This document shows positions 1 through 4,244 of a stretch of 24,335 nucleotides of DNA, in pieces; within the stretch, counting starts at the first letter, position 1, and the number at the start of each line of letters is the position of its first letter. The position numbers and the translations under genes are program-made. Below the pieces are notes generated by a model that saw only the letters and a list, made by a program, of their open reading frames with translations, had not been told where the DNA came from and ran no database searches. Where the stretch lies: contig CAZUUL010000002.1 in assembly GCA_964623155.1 (NCBI GenBank), positions 1-24,335 on the forward strand, read 5' to 3'. The DNA is from an uncultured Gammaproteobacteria bacterium. Lineage in GTDB: Bacteria; Patescibacteriota; Microgenomatia; CAZUUL01.

Positions 1-844
1 GAAGGTCTTGGAAAAATAAACTCTCAAAAGCCATGCCTTCGGCCATCTCCGGCATATCCAAAGGGCCCATCGGCCGGATCGTCCGGTAAATTCCGGTATC
101 GAAAAAGTAAAACTTGGGATGGGTTACCAAGCGTCGTTTGGCCCTTTTGGTAAAGGGCGGCAAGCGGTAGCCAATGAGCAAATCTTCCAAAATAGCAAAA
201 TAATTCTCCACTACTTTCCGTTCGATGGCGGCTTCCCGGGCGACTTCCGAGGTATTGAGCACCGACCCTTGCGAAAAACTGGCAGTTTCCAGGAATCTGG
301 CAAACGCGGCTAAATTTCTGGTCAATCCCTCCTGAAAGACTTCTGTCTCAAGGTAGGTCTTTACGTAACCTTCCAGATATTTTTTGGGGTCAGTTTCTTG
401 ATAAGACGATGGTAGCTGGCCAAAAGCCAGGGAACGGCTCACAGAGAAATCTTTGCCCAGTTCTACGGCTGTCAACGGATGCATAAAATAGGTCAGAGCT
501 CTACCTCCCAGTAGATTGTGTCCCTTCCTGCGTAATTTTCTAGCACTTGAACCGGTGAGGACAAAGGGGATTTTAGCCGTTTCAATTAAGCGATGTACTT
601 CGTTCAGAAGCTCTGGGATTCTTTGTATTTCATCAATCACTACTACATCATGATAAGCTACCGGAATATAATTCATCAGCCGTTGGGGGTTGGCTAATAA
701 ATCAGTAAATACCTCTGCCTCAAGAAGATCAAGATAAACGGCATGGGGGAATCGTGACTTGACATAGGTAGTTTTGCCTGTGCCGCGGGGACCGAAAAGA
801 AAGAAGCTTTTGTTACGCAAAGGGTTTATCAATCTGGAATACAT
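1..844 (-). CDS. AAA_14/DUF4143-type ATP-binding protein, 3' end runs off the window
   Basis: Manual translation from ATG at 844: MYSRLINPLRNKSFFLFGPRGTGKTT (Walker A), VVVIDEIQ (Walker B), LTGSSARKL, KFYFFDTG. Open to base 1; absent from the ORF track because it is partial. Confidence 0.85.
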   Translation of the reverse strand, partial: MYSRLINPLRNKSFFLFGPRGTGKTTYVKSRFPHAVYLDLLEAEVFTDLLANPQRLMNYIPVAYHDVVVIDEIQRIPELLNEVHRLIETAKIPFVLTGSSARKLRRKGHNLLGGRALTYFMHPLTAVELGKDFSVSRSLAFGQLPSSYQETDPKKYLEGYVKTYLETEVFQEGLTRNLAAFARFLETASFSQGSVLNTSEVAREAAIERKVVENYFAILEDLLIGYRLPPFTKRAKRRLVTHPKFYFFDTGIYRTIRPMGPLDMPEMAEGMAFESLFFQDL

Positions 845-987: not shown

Positions 988-1329
988 TTATATAGTTTTA
1001 AGCTTATCATGTTTTGAAAAAAATTGTCTAAATAGCCACACTAAAAGGCAGGATAAAATATACCAACTAATAATACCAGCGGGGGGGAAAAGAAGTTCAA
1101 GGAAGCTATTAAAAGACTTGAAAAAGACCAGTATAGCTGGAAAGAAGAGGATAAGTAAATAGAGTTCTACAATGACAAGCACAGAATTAGTAAGAGAACT
1201 AATCAGGGATGAAGAATTTTCCATGGTAGAGAGTTCAAGAGCGCCAATAGTTATTGATAAAGCCATCGGAAAGAGGAAAAAGATTAAAATTTTTGCTTTA
1301 TTAGGCTTTAAAAATTCTTTCCAGCTCAT
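988..1329 (-). CDS. small hypothetical membrane protein (about 3 TM segments)
   Basis: 113 aa ORF with ATG start and three hydrophobic stretches; no family recognised. Confidence 0.6.
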   Translation of the reverse strand: MSWKEFLKPNKAKILIFFLFPMALSITIGALELSTMENSSSLISSLTNSVLVIVELYLLILFFPAILVFFKSFNSFLELLFPPAGIISWYILSCLLVWLFRQFFSKHDKLKTI

Positions 1330-1440
1330 AAAATCTTAATTACAACCAGTATACCCAAAATCAGGAGGAATAATTGAGTATACTTTTAGACATCTAAAAA
1401 ACACAGAAACCTGCTACAATAAAAGTGAAACCGTTACGAA

Positions 1441-2016
1441 ATGTCACGGTTTGAAAATAGAATCAAAATGGCGTACAAATATGACATGGAGAAAAAGATA
1501 AAACGTAAGAGAATCTACGCCTTTATTGACAGCCAGAACCTACATCTGGGTATGAGCAAAGATATTTACAAAGGTAAAAAGAAGATTTACGCTGGTTGGA
1601 AACTGGACTATAAAAAGTTTAGAGAATATTTATCCGATAAGTTTCGGGTAAGTATGGCTTTCCTATTTATTGGCTACATTCCACAAAATAAAAAACTCTA
1701 CCAGCAACTTAGGTCTTTTGGATATAACCTCGTCTTTAAGCAAACAGTAAAAGATAATTTAGGCAAGGCTAAGGGCAATGTGGATGCAGAATTGGTTCTT
1801 CACGCAGCAGCCATAGAATACTCACAGTACGATAAAGCAGTAGTTGTTTCAGGAGATGGTGATTTTCGCTGCCTTTATGAGTATTTAGTCGAATATAAGA
1901 AGCTTCTTAAGATCATCATTCCCAATAGGCAGGCGGAATCCTCACTTCTTAAACCGTTTCAAAAATATAAAGTATTTTTATATCGCGAGAGACAAAGACT
2001 TGAATTTAAGCAATAA
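1441..2016 (+). CDS. NYN-domain (LabA/DUF88, PIN-like) predicted ribonuclease
   Basis: Motifs AFIDSQNL, KGNVDAELV, VVSGDGDF. The start could be a later Met. Confidence 0.85.
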   Translation: MSRFENRIKMAYKYDMEKKIKRKRIYAFIDSQNLHLGMSKDIYKGKKKIYAGWKLDYKKFREYLSDKFRVSMAFLFIGYIPQNKKLYQQLRSFGYNLVFKQTVKDNLGKAKGNVDAELVLHAAAIEYSQYDKAVVVSGDGDFRCLYEYLVEYKKLLKIIIPNRQAESSLLKPFQKYKVFLYRERQRLEFKQ

Positions 2017-2074
2017 AAATGGGAGGCGTCGCAATATGACACGTAGTCATATGGTCGTATTCTCCCTCGTGATA
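2012..2074 (-). ncRNA. candidate small structured RNA convergent with the NYN gene
   Basis: Minus strand: GGGAG...AUAUGAC-UACGU-GUCAUAU...CUCCC then AUUUUUAUU overlapping the NYN stop codon. Own promoter at 2080-2108. Confidence 0.6.
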
Positions 2075-2079
2075 ACCGC

Positions 2080-2108
2080 ATTCTAACAAAATCTCATTTC
2101 CACGTCAA
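2080..2108 (-). promoter_or_regulatory. sigma70 promoter with extended -10 driving the candidate RNA
   Basis: TTGACG (2108-2103), 17 nt, TAGAAT (2085-2080), with a TG at the extended -10 position; no ORF follows. Confidence 0.65.
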
Positions 2109-2119
2109 CAACCTATAGT

Positions 2120-2415
2120 TTAAACAGCTGTCATAAATAAGACGAAGCCTTTTTGGTTCATAGTATCTTTAGTTTTACTGTATAGTAAACGATTGAACTA
2201 CAGCATCAACAGTATCTTTAGCGATGTCGGTACTAAACTCGAGTTTGTAATCAGAAACTTCTCCTGGTTTACCGGTAAAGCGGGTAACGAGGAACATTAA
2301 TAAACCAAATTAATATTGCCAAACCAAGCAATAGAACTGGAACAATAAATATAATTATTGGCGCAAAGCCTTTTTGCGATAATTTATTCTTGCTTGCATC
2401 TAATAGCTGCTTTAC
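2120..2415 (-). pseudogene. remnants of pilin-like-leader surface protein genes
   Basis: KGFAPIIIFIVPVLLLGLAILIWF (class III signal-like), an out-of-frame C-terminal piece ending ...DAVVQSFTIQ* at 2175, and a separate stub MNQKGFVLFMTAV* at 2161-2120. Confidence 0.45.
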
Positions 2416-2499
2416 TAAACTGACGGTAGCAAATCCAAAATCTTCATCTGCTTTATCCAACCACTCTTTTACTACTTTCGGATCGGGTATATTATCCAT
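2416..2499 (-). pseudogene. truncated HEPN gene (N-terminal 28 codons only)
   Basis: MDNIPDPKVVKEWLDKADEDFGFATVSL matches the first HEPN helix (WLxKAxEDxxxA). The start overlaps the MNT stop; the frame then reads into unrelated sequence. Confidence 0.6.
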
Positions 2500-2815
2500 A
2501 GAGGATGATTCCCTTGCTTGCAATAGTTTTATTTATAAAAGGATCTTTAAGCTTAAGGCGCTGATCAAATTCCTGCTGTGTATACACAATAAAATCGCAG
2601 GCTACTTCTCTATCAATCAATCTATCAACTTCTCTTGCTCTATCTATACTTCGCTGGGGCACCTGGTCTTTAATAAGAAAAAAATCCAGATCATTTGGTT
2701 CCTCTAGGTCATTAGAGGCAGCTGAGCCGAAAAGGATTACCTTTTTAGGATGGTATTTCTCTAGGAGCTGTTGAGCAACTTTTTTTGCCTGTTTTAAAAC
2801 TTCATCTTGAGTCAT
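2492..2815 (-). CDS. minimal nucleotidyltransferase (MNT) antitoxin
   Basis: KVILFGSAA...NDLDFFLI...CDFIVYT...KGIILYG. ATG at 2815 lies 7 nt after a TG-T-TATACT extended -10. Confidence 0.85.
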   Translation of the reverse strand: MTQDEVLKQAKKVAQQLLEKYHPKKVILFGSAASNDLEEPNDLDFFLIKDQVPQRSIDRAREVDRLIDREVACDFIVYTQQEFDQRLKLKDPFINKTIASKGIILYG

Positions 2816-2880
2816 AGTTATGAGTATAACACAAAAGGGGGGCTTTATTGAGTAAATCTGAAGGTGGAGAGGAGTGGCAC

Positions 2881-2943
2881 TTGACAATTCTTCTAATTTA
2901 TCTTAAAATACTTTAAGAATTGTAACAATTGTTAAATTGTAAC
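2881..2943 (+). promoter_or_regulatory. promoter and tandem operator-like repeats of the second ATPase gene
   Basis: TTGACA (2881), 17 nt, TAAAAT (2904); AATTGTAAC/AATTGTTAA/AATTGTAAC at 2918, 2927 and 2935. Confidence 0.6.
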
Positions 2944-2951
2944 TTAAAATT

Positions 2952-4244
2952 ATGGACAATGTGCTCTCTTTAGAAAATCTAGTTCACCTCCAAAATCCCT
3001 GGTTTACCAACCGTGGAGAAGCTCCCACGGATAAATTTCTGCCTAAAAGAGTTTTTTATGCCCCATTTAAAAGTCTAGTCGCTGAAACCAAGCAAATTTC
3101 CGCTCTCATCGGCATGAGGCGGGTGGGAAAAACAGTTATCCTGCGGCAACTGCTCGCCGAAAAACTGGAAGAGCCAAAAAACCTGCCTCTATATTTTTCC
3201 TTTGACCAGGAAATTATTCCTCCCCTAAAAAATCCCCTCTCCGAAATTATCAATTACTATCTTACGAACATCCTCAAACGAAAACTATCACAGATAGACC
3301 AAACTGTTTACCTCTTCTTTGATGAAATCCAACTGATTCCGTTCTGGCCAGATACCCTAAAAAGATATTACGACTTAAACCAGAAGCTGAAATTTGTAGT
3401 GTCTGGCTCGTCAAGCTTGTTTTTGCGCGAAAGCTCTAAAGAAAGTTTGGCAGGCAGAATTTTTGAACAAATTTTACCGCCCTTAACTTTCGGGGAATAT
3501 AAAACTTCCCAAAAAGGTTCAATCACTAGTGAGACAACAGGTTTTGAGGATTACCTTAGGTATGGGGGCTTTTTTGAAGAACTAGAACTTAACGATGAGG
3601 CACGAAAAAAGGAATTCTTACGGGAGTGGGTGCTGGGTAAAGTTTTGGAGCAAGACTTGTCAAACTTGACCCACGTCAGAGATAAACAAATCTTCCGAAT
3701 ACTTTTTCAGGTGATTCTCGGTTGCGTCGGCCAAAATGTGAGTCTGTCTAAAATCGCTACGGAACTTGAAGTCTCTCCGACGACCATTACTAATTACGTA
3801 TCTCTGTTAGAGCAAACTCTCCTGCTGGCTTCAGTTTTCAATTTAGCTGGAAGTTTTATCAGACGAGAACGACGACTACGTAAAATATATCCGAGCTCTC
3901 CCAATTTCCTCACTTTTTTACCCATTTCCCCGGCAAATTTAGGCCCGGGAGTAGAGACATATGTATTTAACTATCTTAGACGTATCTATAGCCGGGGGGT
4001 CTTCTTTTTTCAGGAACGTCAACGAGAGTTAGACTTTTTAGTTCCAGAAAAAAGTCTGGCCTTGGAAGTTAAGTACCAACAGAAAATTCATCCCCAAGAC
4101 TATCGTAACTTGAGGCAAGTTATGAAAAAGAAAAAGTATAGTCGTGGCGTTTTAGTCAACAAAAATGTCAGCAGCGAAAAAACTTTCCCCGAAGGCACAA
4201 TTATTTCCCTGCCAGCTCATCAACTCGAATCAAGCCAGATTTAA
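2952..4244 (+). CDS. AAA_14/DUF4143-type ATP-binding protein
   Basis: GMRRVGKT Walker A, LFFDEIQ Walker B, VSGSSS, ESLAGR, HTH-like IATELEVSPTTITNY, C-terminal ELDF...LEVK. Confidence 0.85.
   Translation: MDNVLSLENLVHLQNPWFTNRGEAPTDKFLPKRVFYAPFKSLVAETKQISALIGMRRVGKTVILRQLLAEKLEEPKNLPLYFSFDQEIIPPLKNPLSEIINYYLTNILKRKLSQIDQTVYLFFDEIQLIPFWPDTLKRYYDLNQKLKFVVSGSSSLFLRESSKESLAGRIFEQILPPLTFGEYKTSQKGSITSETTGFEDYLRYGGFFEELELNDEARKKEFLREWVLGKVLEQDLSNLTHVRDKQIFRILFQVILGCVGQNVSLSKIATELEVSPTTITNYVSLLEQTLLLASVFNLAGSFIRRERRLRKIYPSSPNFLTFLPISPANLGPGVETYVFNYLRRIYSRGVFFFQERQRELDFLVPEKSLALEVKYQQKIHPQDYRNLRQVMKKKKYSRGVLVNKNVSSEKTFPEGTIISLPAHQLESSQI

Follow-up and report, generated by a model that had tools for sequence, protein, structure and literature searches.

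The first 24,335 nucleotides (nt) of the contig CAZUUL010000002.1, referred to here as the window, carry a NYN/LabA-like nuclease gene on the plus strand and, convergent with it, a candidate small-RNA gene on the minus strand that had been proposed from the letters of this DNA alone (the original prediction). The NYN gene occupies positions 1468..2016 and ends with a TAA codon at 2014..2016; its 182-residue form starts from the ATG at 1468, while a longer open reading frame (ORF) starts from 1441.

The protein matched the Pfam family PF01936 with 60.8 bits, against a cut-off of 24.2, and PDB entry 2qip by sequence (1.8e-8). Its AlphaFold model (pLDDT 84.5, pTM 0.79) had 2qip, the protein VPA0982, as sole significant match in a fold comparison (E 4.6e-7). 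Based on an alignment of 25 diverse NYN homologues (A3), residues D21, D106, D130 and D132, the acidic set of NYN/PIN domains, are unchanged, and N104 and the W44-F51 stretch (WKLDYKKF) are invariant. The Pfam score above the cut-off and the four conserved acidic active-site residues place the protein in the LabA-like group NYN.COG1432 (2qip, VPA0982). Because the catalytic acidic residues are intact, it is probably an active nuclease, which would need control. In the relevant passages of PMC5499597, the LabA-like NYN proteins are a very large family, the function of NYN.COG1432 is listed as unknown, and the OST-HTH RNA-binding domain of other members is presumed to recruit substrates; the passages on LabA, PF01936 and VPA0982 name no RNA partner. 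The subfamily of the candidate phyla radiation (CPR) has the invariant WKLDYKKF and is devoid of OST-HTH. NCBIfam gave nothing informative for NYN, and neither did PADLOC, which returned only a weak match to HEC-09 (E 7e-4).

The predicted small-RNA gene

A promoter scan of the minus strand placed a -35 hexamer TTGACG at 2103..2108 and an extended -10 element TGtTAGAAT, with the TG present, at 2080..2088. The spacer between TTGACG (2108..2103) and TAGAAT (2085..2080) is 17 nt long, and 10 of the 12 hexamer positions match. Promoter-like sites are near chance level in AT-rich DNA (17 found versus 12.7 expected in the 6 kb scanned), and the window promoter by itself is not significant. Downstream of it lies a predicted RNA of about 62 nt (2012..2073), supported by a match to the RNA model R1 and by the folding energy, and composed of an AUCACGA leader, an interrupted hairpin and a U-tract. 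Transcription would start at A2073, 7 nt past the -10 box, and would end within the U-tract.

The single-stranded 5′ leader (2067..2073) contains the motif AUCA(C/U), which is invariant in the alignment of this RNA class (A1, see below). The hairpin (2021..2066), supported by alifold pairs and covariation, begins 13 nt beyond the end of the -10 box with a lower stem GGGAG/CUCCC (2066..2062 paired with 2025..2021) and continues into a 7-bp upper stem AUAUGAC/GUCAUAU (2052..2046 paired with 2040..2034), which is closed by the loop UACGU (2045..2041). Its internal loop presents an invariant ACGA on the 5′ side and an ACG on the 3′ side. The U-tract AUUUUUAUU of the putative intrinsic terminator (2012..2020) covers the NYN TAA. 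The three elements that the original prediction had described, namely the minus-strand promoter with its extended TG, the interrupted hairpin with this base and tip, and AUUUUUAUU over the NYN stop codon, were all recovered, at 2108..2080, 2066..2021 and 2020..2012, respectively.

The 62-nt transcript (2073..2012) folds with -17.7 kcal/mol (z = -3.86), an energy as low as that of none of 200 shuffled sequences, and the sole R1 match in the window spans 2013..2076 on the minus strand (86.2 bits, E 4e-21). On the plus strand the hairpin is without a U-tract in the window. Since the stem and AUUUUUAUU are both present on the minus strand, this pair very probably terminates transcription of the predicted RNA; a terminator scan of the window did not list the hairpin.

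A small protein encoded on the minus strand was considered and rejected: the ATG of the 40-residue ORF 2081..1959 overlaps the -10 box, so that the ORF starts upstream of the predicted RNA start, and homologous loci such as L003 have no ATG there. A pseudoknot between leader and loop (CACG with CGUG) was also discarded, as covariation between columns 9 and 34 of A1 is inconsistent.

Conservation behind NYN homologues

We compared 160 loci with NYN homologues, 80 from species-representative genomes and 80 from metagenomes. They were picked by protein similarity only, and the sets are therefore unbiased regarding the RNA. The relatives of this NYN protein number thousands, many of them about 70-80% identical, in CPR bacteria such as Levy-, Shapiro-, Gottesman- and Daviesbacteria; the hosts, mostly CPR bacteria, carry annotations such as Microgenomates, Parcubacteria, Saccharibacteria, Peribacteria and Gracilibacteria. 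A locus counted as evaluable when at least 110 nt were available downstream (n = 152). Under explicit rules, 147 of these 152 loci carry a hairpin with a U-tract that adjoins the 3′ end of NYN, with position and orientation as in the window, and 130 of these 147 also have a promoter with at least 9 of 12 matches within 62 nt upstream. The other 17 are mostly two-hairpin versions with the promoter further upstream, or cases in which the rule picked the wrong hairpin. Five of the 152 failed the rules (L050, L051, L054, L058 and L060): the tested region of L051 includes a run of N, and L054, L058 and L060 have no such element within 190 nt after the match end, at about residue 167. The usual layout after NYN consists of an A-run on the NYN strand, the hairpin and a short conserved stretch, with a -10 box and a TTGAC box on the opposite strand. 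With promoter, hairpin and U-tract retained after NYN homologues in some 150 independent loci, the feature goes beyond chance.

The RNA class of the window (class A) stands behind every NYN homologue of at least 63% identity that has enough downstream sequence, and diverged classes stand behind the majority of distant homologues. Model R1 found exactly one match per class A locus, right after NYN and on the opposite strand, with 63-89 bits; close homologues devoid of promoter and hairpin, which would have spoken against the original prediction, are absent among the evaluable loci. Model R2 matched the same position in most other loci. Most of its extra matches follow a second NYN copy (L038, L075, L085 and L141), and those in L043, L045, L078, L150 and L151 do not adjoin a detectable NYN gene. 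Matches to the models are essentially restricted to the 3′ side of NYN.

Promoters were scored against TTGACA-16/18-TATAAT, over 12 positions, in the 60 nt before the stem of 119 distinct instances. At least 9 positions matched in 112 instances, at least 10 in 94, at least 11 in 55 and all 12 in 16, compared with 9.3%, 1.4%, 0.2% and 0.2% of random 60-mers from the same loci. The -35 consensus reads TTGAC(A/T) over 112 homologous instances, the spacer measures 16-18 nt and the TG extension occurs in 50 of the 119. In 107 of the 119, the -10 box ends 13-18 nt before the stem, and this fixed distance predicts a single-stranded 5′ leader of 7-11 nt. Leader sequences are conserved within classes, as AUCAC(N)AG in class A and as AUCACCACG, GUAUYUCUAG or AGAAUACAUAU in class B, the wider class.

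Among the hosts of class A are Levy-, Curtiss-, Davies-, Shapiro- and Dojkabacteria and some oddly labelled metagenome-assembled genomes (MAGs). RNAalifold predicted 12 pairs in its alignment A1 (32 distinct sequences, 82% mean column identity), with compensatory changes in 8. For example, the upper stem AUAUGAC/GUCAUAU changes to AUAGAC/GUCUAU, AUGUGAC/GUCACAU or GUAUUUC/GAAAUAC, and the lower stem GGGAG/CUCCC changes to GAGAG/CUCUC; with a slightly extended structure, 92% of the cells are paired. The covariation score was 0.389, versus 0.118 for shuffled alignments (0 of 500 reached it) and at most 0.119 when the partners were slid. Invariant columns outside the stems include A4 T5 C6 A7 of the leader, A16 A17, ACGA at 19-22, ACG at 48-50 and the loop bases G35 U36, so that three ACG triplets are located in loops. 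In the U-tract, T59 and T61 are invariant, while T60 and T62 are at least 90% conserved.

Class B hosts are annotated as Parcubacteria-group phyla, some Saccharibacteria, Peribacteria and Gracilibacteria, together with a few MAGs labelled Omnitrophota, Dehalococcoidales or Deltaproteobacteria. Its alignment (A2, 53 sequences) forms an 18-bp hairpin with the loop consensus GGUUYCGUCC, and compensatory changes occur in 17 of the 18 pairs (covariation score 0.492, versus 0.256 shuffled, reached by 0 of 500, and at most 0.219 slid). The loop sequence GUCC is retained across hosts annotated as several CPR phyla. Covariation downstream of NYN homologues, the check that had been suggested with the original prediction, supports the stems in both classes. 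A Saccharibacteria subtype has a core GCCUAAGGUUUCGACCGACCGC enclosed by an outer stem, and this core appears twice in tandem within one predicted transcript in L014, L016, L020, L118, L122, L131, L134, L142 and L144, several of them annotated as Saccharibacteria. Altogether, at least four RNA classes accompany this NYN family.

No neighbouring gene family is conserved; the largest, itself made up of additional NYN copies, is common to 7 of 161 loci. Conservation is limited to the NYN reading frame and to the RNA gene with its promoter and, since no gene neighbour is conserved, NYN and its predicted RNA are a self-contained two-part module. A conserved element upstream of NYN was sought and rejected, the upstream regions of class A loci being alignable only in local groups.

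The hairpin could be supposed to be a plain intrinsic terminator for convergent genes, with a promoter that is due to chance or that serves a decayed cassette upstream, which was the caveat of the original prediction. The near-chance promoter count in the window agrees with this supposition, and stem and U-tract would stop read-through from the minus-strand MNT/HEPN remnants at 2269..2812. Nevertheless, the promoter keeps its fixed distance to the stem in about 130 loci with unrelated upstream genes, the internal loops are invariant, and the terminator scan passed over the hairpin. The fixed spacing, whatever lies upstream, and the lack of a conserved neighbour argue that the promoter is not part of the decayed cassette and that the hairpin is not merely a terminator; the comparative data speak strongly against this explanation, to which we assign practically no probability. 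We consider it very likely that a real, conserved, NYN-linked RNA gene is present.

Apparent NYN pseudogenes were observed in some loci. In L008, L108 and L110, an in-frame TAG lies near codon 28 of NYN, together with an intact RNA gene and a good promoter (R1 68 bits and promoter 11/12 in L008). The NYN copies of L010 and L075 and the second copy of L085 are frameshifted and pseudogene-like, with RNA gene and promoter retained.

No close relative of NYN was found in IMG/VR, where a profile scan yielded 24 distant relatives, 4 of them with class B RNA. In the IMG/VR loci L165, L166 and L168, the hairpin behind more distant homologues is of another type, whose core on the NYN strand is CUUAGGUAUCUCUCCGUUCG-like, and L166 carries two such units. 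A phage origin was discarded: IMG/VR yielded no close relative, and the single match of a DNA-pattern scan, L185, is a chance match on a high-GC contig without a NYN gene.

Strand, overlap and possible roles of the RNA

A G-U pair on the strand opposite NYN would read as an A-C mismatch on the NYN strand. We counted 87 G-U versus 13 A-C in class B (binomial p about 1e-14), divided as 36:4 in the lower and 51:9 in the upper stem; G-U exceeded A-C in 38 of the 53 sequences, and the reverse held in 6. Class A has 6 G-U and 0 A-C. Additionally, R2 scored about 40 bits lower on the NYN strand than on the opposite strand at the same sites. Since this asymmetry, the R2 scores, the U-tract and the promoter all favour the same strand, the predicted RNA is on the strand opposite NYN, in agreement with the antisense orientation first proposed.

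These results also bear on the proposal that the hairpin acts on the sense strand, as a stem-loop in the 3′ untranslated region (UTR) of the NYN mRNA, such as a self-cleavage site for autoregulation; Regnase-1 is an example of autoregulation by cleavage of its own 3′ UTR stem-loop. The NYN mRNA must contain the hairpin, and the plus strand folds with -19.7 kcal/mol (z -2.2). Nevertheless, the G-U pairs of both classes become A-C mismatches there (87:13 and 6:0), the conserved promoter and U-tract serve the minus strand, and the R2 deficit is on the plus strand, all of which leave this proposal very improbable.

From the position of the two genes, complementarity between the predicted RNA and the 3′ end of the NYN mRNA is unavoidable. 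The NYN stop codon is located between 37 nt before the hairpin (in one locus; otherwise about 12) and about 50 nt inside it; a few larger stop-to-hairpin values are probably frame errors from ORF extension. In the window, 4 nt separate the stop codon from the stem, and the last NYN codons overlap the RNA gene in most loci. On the NYN strand of class A loci, the hairpin is not followed by a U-tract, and the NYN mRNA must therefore read through the RNA gene. The class B hairpin is flanked by A- and U-runs and resembles a bidirectional terminator. In many class B loci (e.g., L025, L026 and L035), the lysine-rich NYN tail (...LEYKKK) is encoded by the A-run that complements the U-tract of the RNA, and one DNA stretch therefore serves both genes.

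Such an arrangement is what would be expected of a cis-antisense RNA of type I character, which would pair with the fully complementary 3′ end of the NYN mRNA, cause its cleavage or decay or hinder the end of translation, and thereby keep a potentially toxic nuclease low. The genes are convergent and share the hairpin, the stop codon lies near or inside it (under the U-tract in the window), the last codons enter the RNA gene in most loci, the class B hairpin lies between A-runs and U-runs, and the RNA, of about 60 nt, is comparable to par RNA II. However, pairing in cis is automatic and would not require the primary sequence to be conserved, whereas the unpaired loops here are invariant, and the G-U asymmetry indicates a structure selected on the small RNA only. 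The loops are compact and UNCG-like, not consistent YUNR kissing loops; tandem hairpin units offer no obvious benefit to an antisense mechanism; and the partner is a 182-residue nuclease instead of a small membrane peptide. We consider this main rival rather unlikely.

Our preferred interpretation, held tentatively and with somewhat less than even confidence, is that the RNA is a specific ligand of the NYN protein, either as an inhibitor or decoy, similar to type III systems, or as a cofactor; the antitoxin or substrate role raised with the original prediction is likewise an inference. Recognition by the protein is favoured because the unpaired nucleotides are invariant although internal loops weaken a terminator and are needless for cis-antisense pairing, because the loop sequence is conserved across distant hosts, because the core unit is tandemly duplicated in some lineages, and because the RNA class changes together with an insertion beside the invariant basic motif (about 10 residues directly before WKLDYKKF in class A NYN proteins, among the 25 homologues compared). 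A strong sigma-70 promoter with an extended -10 would start the small RNA about 7 nt before the stem, and the transcript of about 62 nt would fold into a hairpin with invariant unpaired ACG loops and end at its own U-tract over the NYN stop. The RNA would then bind the NYN nuclease, perhaps via the invariant basic WKLDYKKF patch, and the bound RNA would keep the nuclease inactive, as a type III-like antitoxin or decoy substrate, or would serve as its cofactor. The small RNA may additionally lower NYN synthesis, given its complementarity to the 3′ end of the NYN mRNA; binding to the protein and cis-antisense action do not exclude each other.

Several points weigh against the protein-ligand interpretation. 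Protein insertion and RNA class go together along the phylogeny, so their link is not independent evidence. Ordinary terminators often have loops of the UNCG type (UUCG, UACG), which could account for some of the conservation seen in the loops. The NYN frame enters the RNA gene in most loci, so antisense pairing could be the whole mechanism. An apparently intact RNA beside NYN copies with a premature stop or frameshift (L008, L108, L110 and L010) does not fit strict toxin-antitoxin logic. Finally, a clue to function was sought in the structural model and discarded, as it matches 2qip alone, a protein of unknown function.

The RNA might instead act in trans or be a housekeeping RNA, with NYN required for its maturation, turnover or use; it would then serve NYN as its substrate or, through the leader, as its specificity or guide subunit, and not as its inhibitor. 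The single-stranded 5′ leader is conserved (AUCAC...), some model matches lie away from a detectable NYN gene (the five R2 loci named above), and in many loci the module is placed among ordinary housekeeping genes. The RNA could also replace the substrate-recruiting role that OST-HTH is given, in the passages of PMC5499597, for other LabA-like NYN proteins. Nevertheless, no target was found: pairing in trans between the RNA or its leader and the 5′ UTR or start region of NYN was rejected, since the duplex energies are no different from those of shuffled sequences over 113 loci (mean z -0.01 and -0.05), which leaves no excess complementarity to the NYN 5′ region. Moreover, the leader is conserved and not variable, as opposed to an adaptive guide, and so tight a physical linkage to NYN would rather be expected of partner pairs. 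A trans-acting or housekeeping RNA therefore seems improbable to us.

Similar pairs in the window and known systems

A second pair of the window has the same geometry as the NYN pair. The DUF3800-IX RNA (RF02968; 22574..22642 on the plus strand, about 69 nt, 63.4 bits with Rfam) is preceded by the promoter TTGAAC-17-TGgTATAAT, with an extended -10, at 22534..22562, and is convergent with a DUF3800 gene at 22654..23280 on the minus strand, whose stop codon faces the RNA 3′ end. The DUF3800 protein matches PDC-M04A in PADLOC. A third look-alike pair was observed at 20948..21499. Its promoter TTGCCA-16-TGgTAGAAT (20948..20975, plus strand) precedes a candidate hairpin RNA of about 65 nt (about 20983..21048, -23.5 kcal/mol, z -2.75), followed by AUUUUUAUUU. 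The candidate RNA faces the stop of a convergent 149-residue ORF (21050..21499, minus strand) with the N-terminus IEIDQSGK. The ORF has no Pfam match, and the RNA candidate has no Rfam match.

On the minus strand beyond the small-RNA promoter lie an MNT-type nucleotidyltransferase gene (2492..2812; Pfam Polbeta/NTP_transf_2, with a weak MntA match) and, after it, an 84-residue ORF (2269..2523) with a HEPN-like N-terminus running into a hydrophobic segment, which appears to be a decayed partner gene. Read-through from this region (2269..2887, minus strand) would stop at the terminator of the small RNA. The NYN region is bordered on either side by an AAA_14/DUF4143 ATPase gene, one on the minus strand (2..844) and one on the plus strand (2952..4244); the latter matches PDC-S01, a PADLOC candidate defence family (5.7e-54). 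Elsewhere, a nucleotidyltransferase/HEPN-like gene pair (20090..20780) is flanked by the two copies of a direct repeat of 160 nt, at 19900..20059 and 20770..20929 (90% identical). Since this repeat is a duplication of the 3′ end of a large ORF (18910..20076), the gene pair looks like a target-duplicating insertion.

It is possible, though we hold this with clear reserve, that the NYN/LabA-like nucleases of CPR bacteria work in general as RNA-protein modules, in which each nuclease would be controlled or directed by its own convergent, constitutive small RNA. CPR bacteria have small genomes and, to our knowledge, few of their non-coding RNAs have been described. A conserved RNA with its own promoter and terminator beside NYN suggests a concrete, testable partner for the nuclease. 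If true, the module reading would open the uncharacterised LabA-like NYN proteins to functional study for the first time. Together with the DUF3800 pair and the third look-alike, it would also point to a general class of nuclease plus convergent small RNA, distinct from canonical type I and type III toxin-antitoxin (TA) systems. With the RNA as inhibitor, the module would be toxin-antitoxin-like or defence-like, of new composition; with the RNA as cofactor, it would be a new small ribonucleoprotein nuclease.

According to the original prediction, stand-alone NYN/LabA proteins are not known to have a described RNA partner, and our searches of Rfam 15 and the literature are in line with it. At gathering thresholds, Rfam 15 recognised only DUF3800-IX in the window, with no match for the NYN-linked RNA, and only tRNAs and RNase P RNA in 20 homologous loci; a permissive scan of 1900..2250 gave chance-level matches only (E at least 2.5). 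A full-text literature search that combined NYN or LabA with antitoxin, CPR or RNA (small, antisense or non-coding) returned nothing relevant, with a description in other papers being possible, and NYN, LabA and DUF88 are all absent from the main text of Weinberg et al. 2017 (PMC5737381). The NYN-linked small RNAs are apparently a widespread, undescribed family.

The convergent type I TA systems, such as par (RNA I, which encodes Fst, and RNA II) and, in Bacillus, txpA/RatA and bsrG/SR4, resemble the NYN pair in having a convergent RNA with its own promoter that overlaps the mRNA 3′ end or shares the terminator hairpin. As to an antisense RNA with its own promoter and complementarity to the mRNA, the likeness is one of geometry only (convergent promoter and overlap). 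Type I toxins are small (below about 60 residues) and hydrophobic, whereas the partner here is a soluble 182-residue NYN domain nuclease; SymE/SymR and RalR/RalA are type I systems with nuclease toxins and thus exceptions to the small hydrophobic peptide rule. Furthermore, the NYN RNA differs in its unpaired primary sequence, which is conserved across distant hosts.

Type III TA systems (ToxIN, CptIN, TenpIN) also combine an endoribonuclease-like protein with a small structured RNA, which here could bind and inhibit it, and some Saccharibacteria loci likewise have two tandem RNA units. They differ in that the NYN-linked RNA is downstream and convergent, with no upstream co-oriented repeat array: no tandem repeats were found in 1200..2400, where the RNA is a single unit. 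Pfam finds only NYN in the protein, and none of the type III toxins ToxN/AbiQ, CptN or TenpN.

The nearest analogue is provided by the DUF3800 RNAs. Weinberg et al. 2017 described 11 unrelated RNA motifs linked to DUF3800 (DUF3800-I to -XI), on either side and strand of the gene and several with terminators, and gave no functional hypothesis for them (PMC5737381). The gene adjoining the RNA studied here belongs to NYN (PF01936) and not to DUF3800 (PF12686), and the two partners differ in fold, RNase H-like in DUF3800 (PMC10910872) versus PIN-like in NYN/LabA. Nevertheless, both systems consist of short structured RNAs that are tied to one predicted nuclease family and may lie on the opposite strand, and in both several structurally unrelated RNA classes serve one protein family. 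The NYN pair thus offers a second, simpler system in which to approach the long-unexplained link between DUF3800 and its RNAs.

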